Below are positions 39,587 to 54,893 of a stretch of DNA of 64,000 bases, piece by piece. The position numbers and the translations under genes were made by a program. The DNA comes from a phage. Positions within the stretch are counted from its first letter, which is position 1; every line of letters starts with the position of its first letter. Location of the stretch: the sequence record PV874203.1. One strand, 5' to 3'. The notes beneath the pieces are model-generated. The model was not told where the DNA came from. It worked only from the letters and a program-made list of their open reading frames with translations, and ran no database searches.

Positions 39587-39662
39587 TGGTGCACCCTACA
39601 GGACTCGAACCTGTAACCAACGACTTAGAAGGTCGCTGCTCTGTCCATTGAGCTAAGGGTGC
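39587..39662 (-). tRNA. tRNA-Arg (anticodon UCU), 76 nt with encoded CCA
   Basis: Hand-folded cloverleaf: acceptor GCACCCT/AGGGTGC, D-arm GCTC/GAGC, anticodon stem GCGAC/GTCGT with loop CTTCTAA, T-arm ACAGG/CCTGT with loop TTCGAGT, 3' ACCA. Confidence 0.8.
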
Positions 39663-49767: not shown

Positions 49768-50435
49768 TTTTGTTACTCCTTATATAAATTCAATCAACTG
49801 TTACCAACTATATATTAAAGGAAAAGACCGTCAACCAATTATTTTCTAACTTTCTTGCATCCTACTGAAAACTAAAGGAATTTAATTTACCTAACTTTCT
49901 ACATTCAGGGGATTATCTTACTTCTTATTGTTACTTTATAACACTACGGATGTAACGCTATCGCTACGGGTAGCAGACCAACATACCAGGACACGGAGAG
50001 CACACAACCGCAGAACAGACCACGGGGAAACATAGCCAGATAGTGCGGTAATAATATACCACTTAAATAATTAGTTAACTCAAACATCAAAGACGTTCGC
50101 TACGCTCACAAAGGCACGCTGAAAAAGGAAAGAATAAACATCAATAAAAACAATCATTCTTAAAAGAATTATTAAAAGAAACATAATCATCCACTTAATT
50201 AATACATACATACGACGCTACTTCGTAGCTGTGCATTCCATGCACCCATCATATATTGCACTCATAATCATTACTATTGAAACTATTTACACTCAAACTA
50301 TGGGGAGTGGTGACCATCATTAATGGCTTTATTAGCAGACTAATCAGTTGGCCTGTACAGTGTTAGCCTTTCTCTCACTCTTTAAAGGGGTACTAAATAA
50401 ACGGGTAGGTAATGTAATGAGTAGTATACACGGGG

Positions 50436-50474
50436 AAAGAATAACGGGGAGTAGGCACGGGGAAAAGCTGGAAC
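50436..50474 (+). repeat. Three closely spaced ACGGGGA(A/G) direct repeats in the divergent intergenic region
   Basis: TATACACGGGGAAAGAATAACGGGGAGTAGGCACGGGGAAAAGC; a further CACGGGGAAA copy near 50021. Confidence 0.45.
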
Positions 50475-50617
50475 GTTGATAGGGATGTAAAGGCGTTGCC
50501 AATAACCCTTTTTTATTTGAGGACTCCCCCTTTTTTAACAATTCGCCGCGGAGGGCCTAGCCCCACTCGGTCAAATCAGAATTTTAAACACTTATATATA
50601 AGGTTGAAAGAGAACTT

Positions 50618-50782
50618 ATGTGGAAAATTAAGTTAATCATTAAGCAATTCAAATGTGATCATGAGTACTATCGGATACGCAAAGCTTACGGGGATGAAAG
50701 AGTTCACACCCTTTATAAGTCCACTTGGAGATGTAGTAAATGTGGTAAGCTTAAGCACAGCACATGGATGGATAGGCCTTAA
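50618..50782 (+). CDS. Hypothetical small zinc-ribbon protein (54 aa)
   Basis: Hand-translated ORF with CDHEYYR ... CSKCG; first ORF of the plus-strand block. Confidence 0.3.
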   Translation: MWKIKLIIKQFKCDHEYYRIRKAYGDERVHTLYKSTWRCSKCGKLKHSTWMDRP

Positions 50783-50910
50783 CATGACATAGCCTTTATG
50801 AAGGTGCCTTAACATGAAGACTCCTTTAAACCTCTTCCCTTTATCAGCGCACACGGGTTGTTGGTATGAAGGTGCCTTTACGGGTTGGTCTTATGATGTG
50901 CCCTTTATAC
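50775..50910 (+). repeat. Cluster of short direct repeats (GCCTTAACATGA x2, TATGAAGGTGCCTT x2, related TATGATGTGCCCTTTA)
   Basis: Read directly between two tiny ORFs at the start of the late block. Confidence 0.4.
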
Positions 50911-51064
50911 TTTTATTCAGAGGATAGAATATGAAGTTTTTAAAAGAACTACACTCCTTGATTTATAAGGACATAGTGTACTCAGTATCCCGCAATGCAT
51001 GGTTCTACCAAAAAGGTGGCAACGGTGAATGGGTAGATTGAATCTTATTCAGAGGAGATGAATT

Positions 51065-51319
51065 ATGAATTTAGTATTAGATTTTTTATCAGAGTTGGTG
51101 CCTCGGTTTAGAACGGAGACATATGCTTTCGTAGTCAACAGTGACTCTGAAGAAGGGATGGAAGCTACGTGCTTAGGTCGTCTTGTTGACCTAGATGATG
51201 ATACAGATTTCGATATTACAATTGATGTGAGTAGTTTAGGTTGGCTCTTCTTCAGAGCATTCCTCACTTACAAAGTAGAAACGTATAAAGATTACAGCAA
51301 GGGAGATACAGATGAATAA
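51065..51319 (+). CDS. Hypothetical acidic protein
   Basis: 84-aa ORF. Confidence 0.45.
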   Translation: MNLVLDFLSELVPRFRTETYAFVVNSDSEEGMEATCLGRLVDLDDDTDFDITIDVSSLGWLFFRAFLTYKVETYKDYSKGDTDE

Positions 51320-51881
51320 TTTAATCAAAGCGATGGATCTTAATGAGTATAATTCACAGCTATGTCGCTCTGGTTGTAGCTTACAACATTTAGAAACTAT
51401 GGGAAATGTTTCAGGGTTAGCTGTACAAGATTTATATAGTGGAAGTATTCTTAAACCAAATATTACGGAGAACAAAAACATGTTAGATTTGATTCATACT
51501 ACTCGCCCTGATTCTAAAACTAAAAAACAACCATCTACTCTGGAAGTAGTTGAATACGAATCTACTAAACATGATCACCTCCCTGACTATGCTCGTGCAA
51601 TGATTGAGATGATTGAAGAAGCTGAATATGAAATGCTCCATGATTACATTACCTCCAAAGATGAGTGGCATCGTGATGTTCGAATCGAAGAAGACGGTAC
51701 AGAAACAATTACGTGGATTCACAAGAGTGAGTTAGTAGACGACGCACTGCGAGACTACGAAAAATTTTTGGTCGACGGCTCTATTGTTTTAGAGGGAGAG
51801 AAGGGTGTAGAACTTCCGTGGGAGGGTGAGACGATTGCTTTAGGTAAGATGTTCAACCTGTCCGTTGGTGATTGTAAGTAA
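51312..51881 (+). CDS. Hypothetical protein
   Basis: 189-aa ORF. Confidence 0.5.
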   Translation: MNNLIKAMDLNEYNSQLCRSGCSLQHLETMGNVSGLAVQDLYSGSILKPNITENKNMLDLIHTTRPDSKTKKQPSTLEVVEYESTKHDHLPDYARAMIEMIEEAEYEMLHDYITSKDEWHRDVRIEEDGTETITWIHKSELVDDALRDYEKFLVDGSIVLEGEKGVELPWEGETIALGKMFNLSVGDCK

Positions 51882-51887
51882 TGTTTA

Positions 51888-51909
51888 CCTCCCTTGGGAG
51901 GCTTTTTGT
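51888..51909 (+). terminator. Putative rho-independent terminator / attenuator
   Basis: Hairpin CCTCCC-TT-GGGAGG followed by CTTTTTGTG. Confidence 0.4.
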
Positions 51910-51937
51910 GTTGTTGATAATGTAGAAGGAGTATAAA

Positions 51938-52411
51938 ATGTTTGGAGAAAACGGAGAACTCACGCCTGCACAGGTAGCTGAGATTACAGGAAGATTGCCC
52001 GGAGTAACGGAAGAACTTGAAAGCCGTGGTATGAACCCAAGCAATGGGAAGTTTCAAAAGGGAAATAAATTCGGACGACCCAGAGGTAGTAGAGGTAAAC
52101 TGACACAATTAATGTTGGACCGTGTTGCTGCAAGTCATTTGTCTCCTGATGAAGTGTTAATTCAAATTTACGAAGATCCTAATATTCCACCTGATCTTAG
52201 ATTCAAGGCTGCATCAAAAGTTGCAGATCTGGTATATCCTAAGGCGGCCTCTGTTGAAGTTAAGATTGAGGAAGAGAATGTAATCAACGAAGAATCATTG
52301 AATGCACAAATCAAGGACTTCTTGACTGGAGCACTTGGTATCGACGTTATGCCTCCAGAAGAAGACAACTCTGAGGACGCTGAAAAGGGGGAGGAAGCGG
52401 ACGAGAGTTAA
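51938..52411 (+). CDS. Putative terminase small subunit
   Basis: Immediately upstream of the large terminase; HTH-like LTPAQVAEITG, basic Gly-rich segment, acidic C-terminus. Assignment by position and composition. Confidence 0.4.
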   Translation: MFGENGELTPAQVAEITGRLPGVTEELESRGMNPSNGKFQKGNKFGRPRGSRGKLTQLMLDRVAASHLSPDEVLIQIYEDPNIPPDLRFKAASKVADLVYPKAASVEVKIEEENVINEESLNAQIKDFLTGALGIDVMPPEEDNSEDAEKGEEADES

Positions 52412-52529: not shown

Positions 52530-52736
52530 ATGTCATTAGATAAACAAATTTATGAAGCTCTAACTGGTAACAATCTTAGTGTAGAGGAAAAGAAAGCACT
52601 ATTGAATATGTTGAAAGAGCGTGACCAATGGAGGAAGTATAATAGGATTTTGTCTTTCAAGGCGTATGACTTCCAAAAGAAATTTTATGCAGCAGGATTG
52701 AAGCATCGCTTTAGGTTCTTGTGTGCGGCTAACCGT
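52530..52736 (+). CDS. Terminase large subunit (T7 gp19-like), exon 1, ending inside the Walker A motif
   Basis: GGAGG RBS, ATG; translation ends ...YDFQKKFYAAGLKHRFRFLCAANR then an in-frame TAA. Confidence 0.65.
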
Positions 52737-53558
52737 TAACTGTTATTCACCAAGATAACCAACACGAATCTGTCGCAGTATACAAAAGAGATTATCACCT
52801 AAGGCTTAGCTATGGTGGAGCGGTTTAAAAAGTGTGCTAATTGCTGGAAGGCTGTTACGAAAGTTATGCTAATCAGCAGCGAAGCTTAATGTGGGAAACC
52901 TATTAAGAACGTTCAACGACCAGAGATTATTCTCGTAGGGTAAAGTTACCCGAAACGCACACCCCAGAGTGGGATGATATGGTCTATTCTTTTCGGAAAC
53001 GTAAAGCAGGAGAAATTAAAAATATGTTTTTATATCACATCCGTCGTCCGGGTATGTCTTTAGAAGAGGGCTACATCGGAATCACGACAAACACTACAAA
53101 ACGTTTTGCTCAGCATCACAGAGACACTCGAAATAACAACCGACATAATAGGAACTGGCATCTCTATAACGCTCTTCGTAAATATGATGATATAGAGTTC
53201 GTTATCATAGAAGAAGGGGAAGATGAAGTAATTCGACAGAGAGAGTTTGAATTACGCTCGAAACCTAATATGGGTTGGAATCAAGCAGTAGGAGGTTCTC
53301 ATAATGGTGGCAACACTTGGAAAGGCAAACAACGACCTGAACACTCAGAGCTGATGAAGAAGATAGGTTTCCAGAAAGGTAATACCACTGGATCACATCA
53401 TCCAATCATGGCTGAAGGTCAAATATTTGAGAATAAACGTTTAGCGTCAGAAGCTCTTGGAATAAACCCTAAGACAATCTATAATAGATGCAAGAGAGGT
53501 GTTGATGGTTATAAATTTCTCCGGGATGACACTGTTACGGGTGCATCTGAATAAAGAG
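52737..53558 (+). mobile_element. Putative group I intron in the terminase large subunit gene, carrying a GIY-YIG homing endonuclease ORF
   Basis: About 822-nt insert splitting the P-loop: exon 1 ...AANR (last nt U) and exon 2 VGKSYSEA... give AANRVGKS (AxxxxGKS); insert ends in G. An alternative junction (52731/53550) is also rule-compatible. P1-P9 structure not verified. Confidence 0.55.
52979..53554 (+). CDS. GIY-YIG homing endonuclease (insert-encoded)
   Basis: N-terminal YHIRRPGMSLEEGYIGITTNTTKRFAQH matches the GIY-YIG core; basic C-terminal DNA-binding region. Confidence 0.75.
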   Translation: MVYSFRKRKAGEIKNMFLYHIRRPGMSLEEGYIGITTNTTKRFAQHHRDTRNNNRHNRNWHLYNALRKYDDIEFVIIEEGEDEVIRQREFELRSKPNMGWNQAVGGSHNGGNTWKGKQRPEHSELMKKIGFQKGNTTGSHHPIMAEGQIFENKRLASEALGINPKTIYNRCKRGVDGYKFLRDDTVTGASE

Positions 53559-54893
53559 GTTGGTAAATCTTACAGCGAGGCATACGAGTTTGCTTGTCAT
53601 GTCACAGGTCGCTACCCAACTTGGTGGACAGGATATAAATTTAAAAGACCTATCTTAGCATGGGCAGTTGGTATTACAGGGGATTCCACAAGGAAAGTAT
53701 TGCAAAAGGAATTGTTTGGTACACCTATCGGAAAGGATACAAATTTATTAGGGACAGGTGTCATTCCTCGTGATGCTATCGTCATTGATACGATAGAACG
53801 AGATGGTAACAAACTTCAAATCGTACAAATCAAACATCAAAATGAGAGAGGAGAATTTGACGGTTTAAGTACATTAGAATTCCGTTCAACCCAACAGGGT
53901 GAACACACATTGATGGGTGCAACAGTTGACTACATTTGGTTAGACGAAGAAGATCCATATGAGTCTATGGCTATATTCGCACAGTGCGTCACACGTACAC
54001 TCACAACTAAAGGTCTAGTTACAATTACAGCTACACCAGAGAACGGTTTAACTGAACTGGTAGATAAATTTATGAAAGGTGAAGGGGATGAGAACACAGG
54101 TTCTCTATATTTCCAGAATGCTTCTTGGTGGGATGCTCATGCAGACCTAGGTGGACACATCACTGACCAAGATATAAAAGATATGACTGAGGGTATTCCA
54201 GCGTGGCAATTAGAGATGCGTTCAAAAGGTATGCCATTGTTAGGAAGTGGTTTGATATATGATGTATCGGATGACACAATTAAATGTGAACCATTCGAAA
54301 TTCCTGATACGTGGAAACGTGTCTGTGCAATTGATATTGGTATTGATCACCCAACTGCTGCTGTTTGGACAGCTTACGATGCAAACACGGATACTATCTA
54401 TGTTTACGACTCATATAAAGAAGGTGGCTTTACTCCAGTGTATCATGCTCCAGCTATTAATGGTCGTGGTCAGTGGATTCCTGTCATCCTACCGCATGAT
54501 GCGGACAATACTGAGAAAGGTAGTGGTTCATCTGTTGCTCAATTCTATAAGAATGCAGGAGTTAACGTACAGAGTGAGACCTTCTACAACAAAATTGGAA
54601 TGGATGGTAAAAAGAACTTCTTTGTAGAACCGGGAATCACAGATATCCGAGAAAGAATGATGAGTGGACGCTTTAAAGTCTTTAACACAGCCGCTAACGC
54701 TAAGCTATTCGAAGAGAAAGCTAGATATCACCGTAAGGTTGGTAAGATTATTAAAGAACATGATGACTTAATGGATGCAATGCGTTATTCAGCGTGCTCT
54801 GTTACACATCGTGGTCGCTCTAAGCATGATGTTAGCTACGGAAGCGCTTCTTTGTATGAGGCAAACGTAAGCAGATGGAATCAGAGCTACTAA
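53559..54893 (+). CDS. Terminase large subunit (T7 gp19-like), exon 2: rest of ATPase domain and nuclease domain
   Basis: Begins VGKSYSEAYEF (completing Walker A), Walker B VDYIWLDEED. Track ORF starts at a GTG at 53499 inside the insert. Confidence 0.7.
   Translation, partial: VGKSYSEAYEFACHVTGRYPTWWTGYKFKRPILAWAVGITGDSTRKVLQKELFGTPIGKDTNLLGTGVIPRDAIVIDTIERDGNKLQIVQIKHQNERGEFDGLSTLEFRSTQQGEHTLMGATVDYIWLDEEDPYESMAIFAQCVTRTLTTKGLVTITATPENGLTELVDKFMKGEGDENTGSLYFQNASWWDAHADLGGHITDQDIKDMTEGIPAWQLEMRSKGMPLLGSGLIYDVSDDTIKCEPFEIPDTWKRVCAIDIGIDHPTAAVWTAYDANTDTIYVYDSYKEGGFTPVYHAPAINGRGQWIPVILPHDADNTEKGSGSSVAQFYKNAGVNVQSETFYNKIGMDGKKNFFVEPGITDIRERMMSGRFKVFNTAANAKLFEEKARYHRKVGKIIKEHDDLMDAMRYSACSVTHRGRSKHDVSYGSASLYEANVSRWNQSY

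Follow-up and report, generated by a model that had tools for sequence, protein, structure and literature searches.

The DNA analysed here, a 64-kb stretch of sequence record PV874203.1 (the window), derives from a phiEco32-like (Kuravirus) podophage. A direct terminal repeat (DTR) of 193 bp is present in the window as a single copy, in a layout resembling a concatemer junction: base 1 of phiEco32, Paul and YF01, phages whose 193-bp DTRs are annotated or published, aligns to window position 50365; the first 193 nt of phiEco32 equal its last 193 nt; and window positions 49805-50535 are colinear with the right end of phiEco32. The DTR contains CCCTTTTTTA twice and a C-run/T-run element, CCCCCTTTTTT, at 50526, which lies approximately 31 nt from the DTR edge. 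Internal repeats of the terminal repeat were described in the SU10 paper.

Genes and signals of the left-end unit

A short unit occupies the left genome end (Table 1). Its putative sigma70 promoter was missed by a simple consensus scan. The gp1-like gene was found in 20/20 relatives, with 60-100% identity, and in 95 phage records by tblastn; its product matches PHROG 7696, a family with no assigned function. The last four codons and the stop codon of this gene (ATGGATAGGCCTTAA) are at the same time the first copy of the repeat described below. Further downstream, a 36-aa ORF is flanked by two copies of the linker TTATTCAGAGGA. No PHROG or Pfam match was obtained for this ORF. The cassette is not present in phiEco32, Paul, YF01 and LAMP, whose sequences join at the repeated linker. 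The second linker copy has its homologue in phages GAP52 and A24, in the ribosome-binding context of their terS-like gene. The genes gp4 and gp5 separate the array from the terS-like gene in kuraviruses only, and are not found upstream of terS in 7-11, GAP52 and Privateer.

The left-end unit closes with an intrinsic terminator, annotated at the same place in Paul, followed by a gp36-type late promoter whose AATGTA element, at 51919, is kept ahead of gp6 by most of the relatives checked. Supplementary Table S2 of the SU10 paper and the study of phage 7-11 (PMC8948821) both place a late promoter before gene 6. In the phiEco32 promoter mapping, late or middle promoters are located before genes 6, 13, 26, 40, 58 and 68, and none before genes 1-5.

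The product of gp6, encoded directly upstream of TerL, is probably the small terminase subunit (TerS), judging from its sequence profile: built from 29 homologues, the profile matches the TerS proteins of NV1 (7joq, E = 0.002) and PaP3 (6w7t, E = 0.04), and the same similarity to PaP3 was found by HMM-HMM comparison in the YF01 paper. An AlphaFold2 model of gp6 (pLDDT 68) gave no significant Foldseek match.

Table 1. Features of the terminal repeat, the left-end unit and the repeat array in the window
Feature	Position	Strand	Basis or remark
Direct terminal repeat (DTR), 193 bp	50365..50557	.	Single copy; concatemer-junction-like layout
Putative sigma70 promoter and leader of the left-end unit	50570..50610	+	Prediction only
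gp1-like gene, 54 aa, CxH...CxxC zinc-ribbon-like pattern	50618..50782	+	tblastn; PHROG 7696
Motif copy 1, ATGGATAGGCCTTAA	50768..50782	+	PWM 19.4 bits; one-mismatch pattern match
Motif copy 2, ATGACATAGCCTTTA	50784..50798	+	PWM 18.8 bits; exact pattern match
Motif copy 3, ATGAAGGTGCCTTAA	50798..50812	+	PWM 19.3 bits; exact pattern match
Motif copy 4, ATGAAGACTCCTTTA, weaker, T at the S position	50814..50828	+	PWM 11.0 bits; one-mismatch match
Motif copy 5, degenerate, 3' half-site CCCTTTA alone kept	50829..50843	+	Core match at 50837
27-nt tandem duplication, ACGGGTTGTTGGTATGAAGGTGCCTTT / ACGGGTTGGTCTTATGATGTGCCCTTT, holding copies 6 and 7	50853..50906	+	Repeat search
Motif copy 6, ATGAAGGTGCCTTTA	50866..50880	+	PWM 20.4 bits; exact match
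Motif copy 7, ATGATGTGCCCTTTA	50893..50907	+	PWM 20.1 bits; exact match
Linker TTATTCAGAGGA, first copy, with Shine-Dalgarno sequence	50913..50924	+	Repeat search
36-aa ORF cassette, variably present among relatives	50931..51041	+	
Linker TTATTCAGAGGA, second copy, directly before gp4	51045..51056	+	Repeat search
gp4-like gene	51065-51319	+	PHROG 12698 / 12176 (gp4-like, gp5-like pair)
gp5-like gene	51312-51881	+	PHROG 12698 / 12176 (gp4-like, gp5-like pair)
Intrinsic terminator, end of the left-end unit	51888..51911	+	Terminator scan
gp36-type late promoter, GATAATGTAGAAGGAG..., directly before gp6	51916..51937	+	
gp6, probable small terminase subunit	51938..52411	+	

An array of two-part direct repeats

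A 15-nt two-part motif, RTGR-N4-SCCTTWA, recurs at positions 50768-50907 in six strong copies and a degenerate one, arranged head-to-tail and all on the plus strand. The two constrained halves of the unit are about one helical turn apart; the spacing of the units is 14-16 nt at first and 27 and 37 nt thereafter. An earlier sequence-only reading of this DNA had listed GCCTTAACATGA and TATGAAGGTGCCTT, twice each, and a degenerate TATGATGTGCCCTTTA within 50775-50910: these exact repeats were recovered there, GCCTTAACATGA at 50776 and 50806, TATGAAGGTGCCTT at 50797 and 50865, and TATGATGTGCCCTTTA at 50892, and the three word pairs are pieces of one motif family. Its description of the repeats as lying between two tiny ORFs was roughly right, the left ORF being the conserved gp1-like gene and the right one the cassette that several relatives lack. 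Its placement of the repeats at the start of the late operon could not be upheld, since the array sits in the short left-end unit, upstream of the terminator and of the late promoter consensus, which is 1 kb downstream.

The clustering of the repeats is far above expectation. Eight repeated 10-mers in a 136-nt region gave the top value among 1,879 overlapping 136-nt windows of the 64 kb (mean 0.054), and the core SCCTTWA occurs six times on one strand within 132 nt, against 0.035 expected (Poisson P = 2.5e-12; ~2e-9 when corrected for windows). The window matches the 14-nt pattern TGANNNNSCCTTWA exactly at four places, all on the plus strand within 50785-50907, and with one mismatch at 50769 and 50815. 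A weight matrix (PWM) trained on relatives alone was scanned over 128 kb of strand length: the five best matches (18.8-20.4 bits) were all on the plus strand within 50767-50908, with a background maximum of ~10.8 bits. One reverse-strand match (13.4 bits) lies inside the DTR; no match above background was found on the right-end side of the DTR (49770-50364). RTGR-N4-SCCTTWA is a single-locus motif, absent elsewhere in the 64 kb.

Copies of the motif were found in 21/21 kuravirus-like genomes, which belong to three genera and keep 3-7 copies each, usually 5-7 and never fewer than 3. In these genomes 107 full copies lie inside the gp1-gp4 interval, all on the plus strand, versus one in ~100 kb outside it. 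The profile of 96 distinct copies showed that the R-T-G-R and S-CCTTWA halves are constrained and that the four central positions are free. Among orthologues, three of four variable columns fall in N4 and none in the 22 constrained columns. The degenerate copy 5, whose orthologous unit is absent in YF01 and NJ01, is followed by TCAGCG, similar to the TCAG(T/A)G units that distant relatives carry. Between copies, the relatives have gained and lost repeat units as well as small ORF cassettes, and the array region flanks variable ORF cassettes at indel breakpoints. A search of IMG/VR for further kuravirus loci returned three, two of them already known.

In 11 distant loci, the 500 nt ahead of the terS-like gene contain related arrays, of the form RTGR-N4-SC(A/C)(T/C), with 42 copies versus 3.45 expected (P ~1e-30). 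The sequence-only reading is borne out in part: the cluster is an array of repeated sites, kept in the 21 kuravirus-like genomes and, in variant form, in 11 distant phages. The TerS proteins of the distant array-bearing phages are only 42-50% identical, and the arrays reach from kuravirus-like phages and Grimontviridae to phages of Aeromonas, Vibrio and Pantoea. The 3' half of the motif varies by clade (SCCTTWA, SCCATC, GGCATG, SCCACAC). A C-run/T-run element precedes the array by 90-310 nt in 10/11 distant loci, giving the order C-run/T-run element, array, terS. Downstream of the arrays of the distant phages, at a distance of 40-120 bp, is a match to GTAAtg-16-aCTA, the late-promoter consensus mapped in 7-11; Privateer has this pairing of array and promoter twice. 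In 7-11, the sole cluster in 50 kb is located before gene 1. A MEME search of intergenic regions in the 7-11 study, in which eight late promoters were mapped, gave no over-represented motif (PMC8948821), and the kuravirus and 7-11 papers that we read do not mention the array.

Coding, RNA and promoter readings of the array

A small protein gene over the array was rejected. The array block differs in length by -2, -1, +1 and +16 nt among relatives, indels that are not multiples of three, and reading frames are not kept: Paul, YF01 and SGF2 have truncated or frameshifted versions of the 37-aa and 22-aa ORFs found in the window. Several copies carry TAG at their "codon 3", the 37-aa ORF has no PHROG match, and a period-3 substitution pattern is absent, the variable columns falling in N4. 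The sequence-only reading had named as grounds for its own dismissal repeats that are not conserved in relatives and lie within a translated small ORF; comparison with related phages gave the opposite picture, with the repeats conserved and the candidate ORFs over the array losing their frame. Its suggestion that the repeats are remnants of a duplicated small gene does not agree with the fixed two-part architecture, nor with the presence of the motif in phages that have no ORFs there.

A structured RNA or riboswitch was discarded, as the predicted fold was no better than that of shuffled sequences (z-score -0.36) and the covariation term was +1.89, with one compensatory pair; no Rfam match was obtained for 50768-50907 even at E <= 1. 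The prophage sRNA svsR, described in a paper that mentions kuraviruses, was found to have no bearing on the array.

A gp36-type late promoter inside the array was excluded by the absence of AATGTA from it. The SU10 text locates a promoter "between CDSs 3 and 4"; according to SU10 Table S2, this is the promoter directly before the terS-like gene. Neither a sigma70 promoter consensus nor a terminator consensus was found in the array. A general accessory to late promoters was discarded as well, the motif being absent from the other late and middle promoter regions of the window and of 50 kb of 7-11. A scan for DnaA boxes found none in the array and a lone DnaA-type match at 50627, on the reverse strand; inspection of the array for IHF-type sites found none. 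The zinc-ribbon protein gp1 was rejected as the conserved binder: gp1 is confined to kuraviruses of E. coli and Shigella, and the arrays extend to phages that have no gp1.

The array is, in summary, real, conserved and restricted to a single locus, and has no signatures of coding or of RNA structure.

A candidate packaging site and competing explanations

The array starts 211 nt from the right edge of the DTR, just inside the left genome end, and the order DTR-array-terS is kept in kuraviruses. Strong early sigma70 promoters lie at the right genome end, opposite the array, for which reason the right end is probably the leading end at ejection and the left end was assumed to be packaged first. 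We favour, tentatively and at somewhat less than even confidence, the reading of the array as a set of DNA sites that act in cis at the genome end packaged first, probably in recognition by the terminase or the packaging machinery. Several observations argue for it: the specificity and conservation of a motif that lies at the genome end and is neither coding nor structured RNA; the tie of the arrays, throughout the family, to the genome end and to a terS-like gene; the single cluster in 50 kb of 7-11, a genome with eight mapped late promoters, which shows that the motif is not a general late-promoter accessory; the probable identity of gp6 as TerS; and the precedents of SPP1 pac and T7.

In this proposal the units would be candidate binding sites for an oligomeric phage DNA-binding protein, and the packaging machinery, TerS-like gp6 together with TerL, would recognise the genome end on concatemers through the array, in a role comparable to that of lambda cosB or of pac-type repeats. 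The ancestral layout would have been terminal-repeat edge, array, terS; in kuraviruses, gp1 may have been inserted on one side of the array, and gp4, gp5, the terminator and the late promoter on the other.

The array compares most closely with that of T7 and with the pac and cosB repeats. In the T7 sequence we found 12-13 same-strand copies of CCTAAAG with a 13-nt period at positions 175-338. The arrays of T7 and of the kuraviruses share a same-strand 7-bp core at a short fixed period (13 versus 14-16 nt), a position just internal to a short left-end DTR in podophages that package from concatemers, and uniqueness in the genome region. They differ in the core itself (CCTAAAG versus SCCTTWA) and in the RTGR 5' half, which T7 units lack. 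The T7 array starts 15 bp after the terminal repeat, whereas that of the window starts 211 bp after it, behind a gene. T7 has a matching array beyond the terminal repeat at its right end, for which the window phage has no counterpart, and the early promoters of T7 are at the left end, whereas those of the window phage are at the end opposite the array. To our knowledge, neither repeat array has an established function.

In lambda, the R sites of cosB are short direct repeats between the DNA end and the small-terminase gene. Like cosB and the SPP1 pac boxes a, b and c, the array consists of several direct repeats of the same orientation, placed between the end or cleavage site and terS, at the start of the morphogenesis block; it adjoins the genome end on the terS side and its sites are repeated, oriented and unique, binding by TerS being putative. 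Unlike those sites, the kuravirus array is separated from terS by two genes, a terminator and a promoter, and the ends of the window phage are exact 193-bp terminal repeats, in place of cohesive ends or headful packaging. Direct repeats in SPP1 pac form three sets, which extend over the promoters and the beginning of terS (PMC4737164).

Other observations weaken the packaging reading. The pac repeats did not drive binding by the isolated TerS DNA-binding domain of SPP1/SF6 (PMC4737164). The TerS of PaP3, the closest solved homologue of gp6, prefers the PaP3 "cos" sequence, a C-run/T-run 20-mer, GCCGGCCCCTTTCCGCGTTA, near the genome end (PMC7672466). This is a single site, whose look-alike in the window phage is CCCCCTTTTTT in the DTR, not the array; the TerS site may therefore be the DTR element. 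The kuravirus array belongs to a predicted early transcript and is separated from terS by 1 kb, its 14-16-bp spacing is not a helical repeat, and the TerS identity of gp6 comes from weak profile matches with a non-significant fold search. Packaging also does not explain the regular pattern of RTG and in-frame TAA or TGA in kuraviruses.

The units could instead be operators, as the sequence-only reading had suggested, roadblocks or activator sites, occupied by a DNA-binding regulator of the phage (or host) that controls the left-end early unit (by shut-off, or by halting read-through to the late genes) or the first late promoter. The two-part direct-repeat architecture would suit a cooperative DNA binder, the distant arrays, with the two pairs of Privateer, lie close upstream of late-promoter matches, and the kuravirus array starts at the stop codon of gp1, whose zinc ribbon could bind nucleic acid. 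We nevertheless regard such a regulatory array as unlikely, as no promoter overlaps the kuravirus array (~170 nt separate it from the predicted sigma70 promoter upstream, and the terminator stands between it and the late promoter), the other late and middle promoter regions of the window and of 50 kb of 7-11 are devoid of the motif, gp1 does not occur in the distant phages that retain the array and no other candidate regulator was found, and the 7-11 late promoters, including P1, are transcribed in vitro by core RNA polymerase and the phage sigma factor alone (PMC8948821). The array might also have no dedicated function, being a duplication prone to slippage and recombination, made of the scars left by the turnover of small early-gene cassettes that share start, end and linker sequences, and kept by ongoing unequal crossing-over. 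Changes in unit number do map to the repeats: Bas90 has copy 2 fused to copy 6 at GCCTTTA, exactly one 16-nt unit is absent from MN05, and one 15-nt unit is absent from YF01. Local duplications of 27 and 30 nt are present, insertions between or inside copies comprise three different ORF cassettes and an 18-nt palindrome, and the linkers around the 36-aa ORF fit the same picture. A precedent exists in the PeSLs of T4-type phages, promoter and stem-loop cassettes dispersed over several regions, which form mosaic junctions and share with the array short conserved motifs flanking small variable ORFs, a hyperplastic early region and indel breakpoints (PMC2839356). Unlike PeSLs, the array has no promoter consensus or stem-loop, is confined to a single locus, is tandem with no intervening ORFs, and persists where ORFs are missing. 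That the array is mere scarring seems quite improbable: neutral scars would not hold a two-part consensus with a free centre across 96 copies and three genera, with constrained positions invariant among orthologues, nor a minimum copy number, nor a related motif at the same position in phages with such divergent TerS.

The start and stop codons within the repeats could point to a device acting at the level of translation, formed by coupled mini-ORFs, RTG-x-x-CCT-TAA or RTG-x-x-CCT-TTA-TGA with ATGA overlaps, in the early mRNA. Such a chain would hand ribosomes from gp1 to the downstream genes, shield the RNA from Rho or RNases, or mimic the lambda bar minigenes through peptidyl-tRNA drop-off or Pro-stop stalling. 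Position -9 is A (70) or G (24) in the 96 copies, followed by an invariant TG; as this RTG stands exactly 9 nt before CCT-TWA, every copy reads start-x-x-Pro-Leu/stop. The spacing, 16 nt after CCTTAA and 14 nt after CCTTTA(TGA), creates stop-start overlaps or 1-nt gaps, and in the window an unbroken chain of short ORFs joins gp1 to gp4. The in-frame relation, however, follows automatically from the fixed motif spacing, the copies have no preceding Shine-Dalgarno sequence, several carry the TAG already mentioned, copies fuse into longer ORFs in other frames in relatives, and gp4 has a strong ribosome-binding site of its own. In distant phages the homologous units lack a stop codon close by. They occupy stretches without annotated genes (7-11, GAP52) and are mostly upstream of the best late-promoter-consensus match, so that they are probably untranslated there; a translational device has, in our view, little probability. 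The bar minigenes of lambda are single elements with a Shine-Dalgarno sequence. They resemble the array in being very short ORFs (start, few codons, stop) in an early phage transcript, and differ from it in that the array is tandem, has no Shine-Dalgarno sequence and does not keep its mini-ORF character in distant relatives. An equally slight chance was given to some other function of the genome end or of a decoy RNA: origin iterons, an ejection or entry signal (like the repeat-rich injection-stop region of T5), a titrating early repeat RNA, or a type III antitoxin mimic. A tandem direct-repeat array does adjoin the genome end, four perfect DnaA boxes precede the GAP52 array by ~900 bp, and the kuravirus array is probably transcribed early. 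Against this, neither DnaA boxes nor an AT-rich unwinding element lie beside the array in the window, the leading end is more likely the right one, no RNA structure, stable or covarying, was found, and the 14-16-nt units are unlike the repeats of type III antitoxins, which are 34-45 nt long. Most improbable of all, in our estimate, is a combination of both kinds of role, in which kuraviruses captured an ancestral DNA site array in an early mRNA, where it gained a second role as RNA. Head-to-tail mini-ORFs (AUG-x-x-Pro-stop or Pro-Leu-stop), or else the repeat RNA as such, would then cause ribosome stalling or peptidyl-tRNA drop-off, or act as a decoy for host RNA-binding or toxin proteins during host takeover. 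If this were true, one sequence would hold a dual code and serve for packaging as DNA and for host takeover as RNA.

The array also marks a hotspot of gain and loss of small early genes. Recognition by terminase of exact ends with short direct terminal repeats is poorly understood, even in T7. The array offers a concrete and mutable candidate for end recognition in kuraviruses, phages widely isolated for therapy, and its clade-specific 3' halves provide natural specificity variants for swaps.

The repeat array and its genome setting

The source of the DNA is a podophage like phiEco32 (Kuravirus, Gordonclarkvirinae) that is 85-90% identical to SGF2, NJ01, DE5 and others at the nucleotide level. 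For phiEco32, Paul and YF01, 193-bp direct terminal repeats (DTRs) are annotated or published, and base 1 of each of these genomes aligns to position 50365 of the window. The first 193 nt of phiEco32 are identical to its last 193 nt, and its right end, running into the DTR, is colinear with 49805-50535. From this alignment and colinearity it follows that the window has a single DTR copy, with right-end sequence on its left side and left-end sequence on its right. Genes are on the minus strand throughout left of 49767 and on the plus strand throughout right of 50618.

The array starts 211 nt inward of the DTR, at the 3' end of the gp1-like zinc-ribbon gene, which is 60-100% identical across 95 E. 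coli/Shigella phage records and whose final four codons and stop codon form copy 1. The 36-aa ORF, the gp4-like and gp5-like genes, a terminator, a late promoter and gp6, a terS-like gene, follow in this order. The sequence-only reading had put the cluster where the late operon begins; the array is instead part of a short unit of the left end that precedes this operon, since phiEco32's promoters of the middle and late classes were mapped before genes 6, 13, 26, 40, 58 and 68 (PMC8948821) and the SU10 paper assigns CDS 1-3 to the early class, with CDS1 preceded by one putative sigma70 promoter only.

Features of the array, the terminal repeat and their surroundings
Feature	Position	Strand	Remarks
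tRNA-Arg gene	39587-39662	-	anticodon TCT; only tRNA gene of the window
Hairpin-like ACGACGCTACTTCGTAGCTGTG	50213-50234		right-end side of terminal repeat
DTR copy	50365-50557
24-nt pair TAATGAGTAGTATACACGGGGAAA / TAACGGGGAGTAGGCACGGGGAAA	50415-50465		in terminal repeat; 27 nt apart, with ACGGGG three times
Array-motif match ATTGGCAACGCCTTTAC	50487-50503	-	in terminal repeat; single, 13.4 bits, above background maximum
CCCTTTTTTA, twice	50506-50537		in terminal repeat; known from SU10
gp1-like gene	50618-50782	+	54 aa; CxH...CxxC pattern
Array	50768-50907	+	copies 1-4 ATGGATAGGCCTTAA, ATGACATAGCCTTTA, ATGAAGGTGCCTTAA, ATGAAGACTCCTTTA; degenerate unit keeping CCCTTTA alone; then ATGAAGGTGCCTTTA, ATGATGTGCCCTTTA
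36-aa ORF	50931-51041	+	first item 3' of array; lacking in several relatives
Intrinsic terminator	51888-51911		3' of gp4-like and gp5-like genes
gp36-type late promoter	51919		AATGTA; directly before gp6, kept in most relatives checked
Group I intron	52734-53006		in large terminase gene; Rfam RF00028, 74.6 bits
ORF	52979-53554		GIY-YIG endonuclease domain
Following ORF	within 52979-54893		Terminase_6N/6C

The repeat words of the sequence-only reading were found where it had placed them, GCCTTAACATGA at 50776 and 50806, TATGAAGGTGCCTT at 50797 and 50865, and the degenerate TATGATGTGCCCTTTA at 50892, and are pieces of a single repeat family with the 15-base motif RTGR-N4-SCCTTWA. Their clustering far exceeds chance: the array region contains eight repeated 10-mers and ranks above 1,879 other 136-nt windows (mean 0.054). 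The SCCTTWA core shows no overall enrichment in the window (28 observed against 31 expected); six copies lie in the array on one strand within 132 nt, where 0.035 are expected (P = 2.5e-12). All four exact matches in 64 kb to the 14-nt pattern TGANNNNSCCTTWA are in the array region, and a weight matrix trained on relatives only gave its five top scores in the array (18.8-20.4 bits); the background did not go above about 10.8 bits. ACGGGT, a word of the terminal repeat, occurs twice more in the array (50853, 50880).

In SGF2, phiEco32 and similar phages the large terminase (TerL) gene starts about 70 nt past gp6, without the insertion found in the window.

Conservation, indels and coding potential in kuravirus-like genomes

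The interval from the gp1-like stop to the gp4-like start was compared in 20 relatives of the genera Kuravirus, Suseptimavirus and Nieuwekanaalvirus. This comparison, proposed in the sequence-only reading, showed the array to be kept in all kuravirus-like genomes examined, with three to seven CCTTWA cores in every one, on the plus strand throughout. The full motif has 107 copies within these intervals and a single copy in approximately 100 kb beyond them. Among 96 distinct copies, for which CCTTWA was the search criterion, position -9 has A in 70 and G in 24, -8 has T in 88, -7 has G in 90 and -6 has A in 60 and G in 30; -5 to -2 are nearly free, and at -1 there are 63 G and 27 C. The motif is therefore a two-part site with constrained halves about one helical turn apart. 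Cores are spaced by 14 nt (24 cases), 16 nt (33) or 15 nt (5), and further by 25-27 and 37-40 nt, with inserts accounting for larger gaps.

The gp1-gp4 interval is a hotspot of insertions and deletions. SGF2, ECBP2 and KBNP1711 have an inserted 26-aa hydrophobic ORF 3' of copy 1, the acidic phi32_2 ORF is carried by phiEco32, ES17, PH444, 1-6af and HC-25922, and entire units were lost through copy-to-copy recombination in Bas90, MN05, YF01 and NJ01. Some kuraviruses carry the 36-aa ORF, for which no family match was found, and others lack it cleanly. Direct repeats of the linker TTATTCAGAGGA, which bears a Shine-Dalgarno sequence, flank this ORF on both sides and make it a case of cassette gain or loss via short linker homology. 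The 18-nt palindrome GTAGTCATCAAAGATGAC splits a different copy in each of SGF2, ES17 and KBNP1711. Its arms (GTCATC/GATGAC) are the 5' half of the motif inverted, and the full motif is restored at the 3' side of the insert, which could be a mobile mini-element or a template-switch product. In LAMP and Bas94, AGCTACTACGTAGCGTCG adjoins the array on its gp4 side and resembles the reverse complement of the hairpin-like ACGACGCTACTTCGTAGCTGTG.

Neither a coding nor an RNA role of the array is supported. One counter-sign named in the sequence-only reading was placement within a translated small ORF; the overlapping 37-aa and 22-aa ORFs are cut short or thrown out of frame in Paul, YF01 and SGF2, and the best-conserved 59-nt block shifts in length by -2, -1, +1 and +16 nt between relatives. 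In the indel-free alignment three of the four variable columns fall in N4 and none in 22 constrained positions, with no period-3 bias, and several copies have TAG as third "codon". RNA folds of the array were not more stable than those of shuffled sequences (z = -0.36), the consensus fold of eight relatives had a positive covariation term with one compensatory pair, and an Rfam search of the array gave no match even at E <= 1. In the 7-11 locus (L021, 1515-1600) three copies spaced exactly 27 nt share one frame (MTSHQ... / MTSHQ... / MISHL...), with both TCC and AGC serine codons, a curiosity that hints at a peptide-level reading; other phages do not reproduce the pattern.

The motif family in distant phages

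In the distant C3-type podophages 7-11, GAP52, A24 and Privateer (Grimontviridae) gp1-gp5 are missing; the terS-like gene is shared, at about 50% identity. Same-strand repeats such as ATGACCTCCCATC and ATGACATGGCAT occur 60-350 bp upstream of this gene in all four, followed by T-rich T(A/T)TCAG(T/A)G units; the repeat-bearing DNA is unannotated in 7-11 and GAP52. The picture is alike, with repeats of the form ATGAnnnnGGCATG, in Aeromonas LAh_6, Vibrio SJSY21 and Pantoea TacPo2. As a prediction test, metagenomic contigs with the most divergent TerS homologues (42-50% identity) were analyzed and also carry arrays, in one lineage of the form ATGA-N4-S(C/G)CACAC. Within 500 nt upstream of the terS-like gene in 11 loci, RTGR-N4-SC(A/C)(T/C) occurs 42 times where 3.45 copies would be expected, a 12-fold excess (P about 1e-30).

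A C-run/T-run element, CCCC(C)TTTT, precedes the array by 90-310 nt in 10 of the 11 loci; in kuraviruses an element of this kind (SU10 paper) lies at 50526, about 31 nt from the right edge of the DTR. In GAP52 and A24 the context of the terS ribosome-binding site (TTCAGTGAGGAGAAGTATCATG) matches that of kuravirus gp4 (TTCAGAGGAGAAGAATTATG), which suggests that repeat edge, array, linker and terS ancestrally followed one another in this order. Kuraviruses would then have inserted gp1 to one side, and to the other gp4 and gp5 together with the terminator and the late promoter.

Eight late promoters have been mapped in the 7-11 genome (PMC8948821), and the only motif cluster in the 50 kb of 7-11 scanned is the one before gene 1. 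The motif is likewise absent from the other promoter regions of the window. A late-promoter accessory role was therefore rejected, and the array is regarded as a left-end element.

A long unannotated region of GAP52 contains a group of four perfect DnaA boxes (TTATCCACA; L022, 443-633), which lies some 900 bp upstream of the GAP52 array and may be an origin-like element. Two stretches were singled out in Privateer (L023, 1849-1985 and 2122-2228).

A candidate packaging site

The array is a unique, orientation-fixed tandem set of two-part sites, conserved at the nucleotide level and adjoining the terminal repeat on its terS side. Most economically, its units would be sites bound by an oligomeric DNA-binding protein of the phage in recognizing the genome end for packaging, a tentative model to which we give somewhat less than an even chance. 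The small terminase is probably gp6, which lies directly upstream of TerL: a profile of 29 gp6 homologues matched the TerS structures of NV1 (E = 0.002) and PaP3 (E = 0.04), a similarity also reported by the YF01 authors. Foldseek gave nothing significant for the gp6 AlphaFold2 model (pLDDT 68). Strong sigma70 early promoters near the right end suggest, by analogy with T7, that ejection is led by this end and that packaging begins with the left end. Sites of the cosB or pac type are usually located at the end packaged first, where left-end-first packaging would put the array. In T7, 12-13 CCTAAAG copies, verified in the T7 sequence record, recur with a 13-nt period at positions 175-338, just inside the terminal repeat, and SPP1 pac has three direct-repeat sets across promoters and the terS start (PMC4737164).

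Several observations argue against the packaging model. PaP3 TerS prefers a C-run/T-run 20-mer (PMC7672466) which resembles the DTR-internal element and not the array, and the SF6 TerS DNA-binding domain ignores pac repeats (PMC4737164). The unit spacing is not a helical repeat, and the kuravirus array lies 1 kb from terS, within a probable early transcript. An array of regulatory sites would fit the pairing of the array with a late-promoter-like match in distant phages, twice in Privateer, but is unlikely given the kuravirus layout and the transcription of 7-11 late promoters in vitro without an activator (PMC8948821). That the copies are functionless recombination scars is quite unlikely: scars account for the indels but not for a consensus fixed at this evolutionary depth. 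A chain of coupled mini-ORFs, which would explain the regular RTG and in-frame TAA/TGA in kuraviruses, lacks Shine-Dalgarno sequences, is not kept in distant relatives and is very unlikely. Origin, ejection-signal and decoy-RNA functions have little specific support and, even taken jointly, a low probability.

Short repeat arrays by phage genome ends and pac/cos repeats are already known kinds of element. No mention of this motif family, its two-part architecture, clade-specific 3' halves or breadth was found in the kuravirus or 7-11 literature examined, and MEME analysis of 7-11 intergenic regions had returned no over-represented motif (PMC8948821). The array, with its putative function, is a concrete and testable candidate for end recognition in short-terminal-repeat phages.
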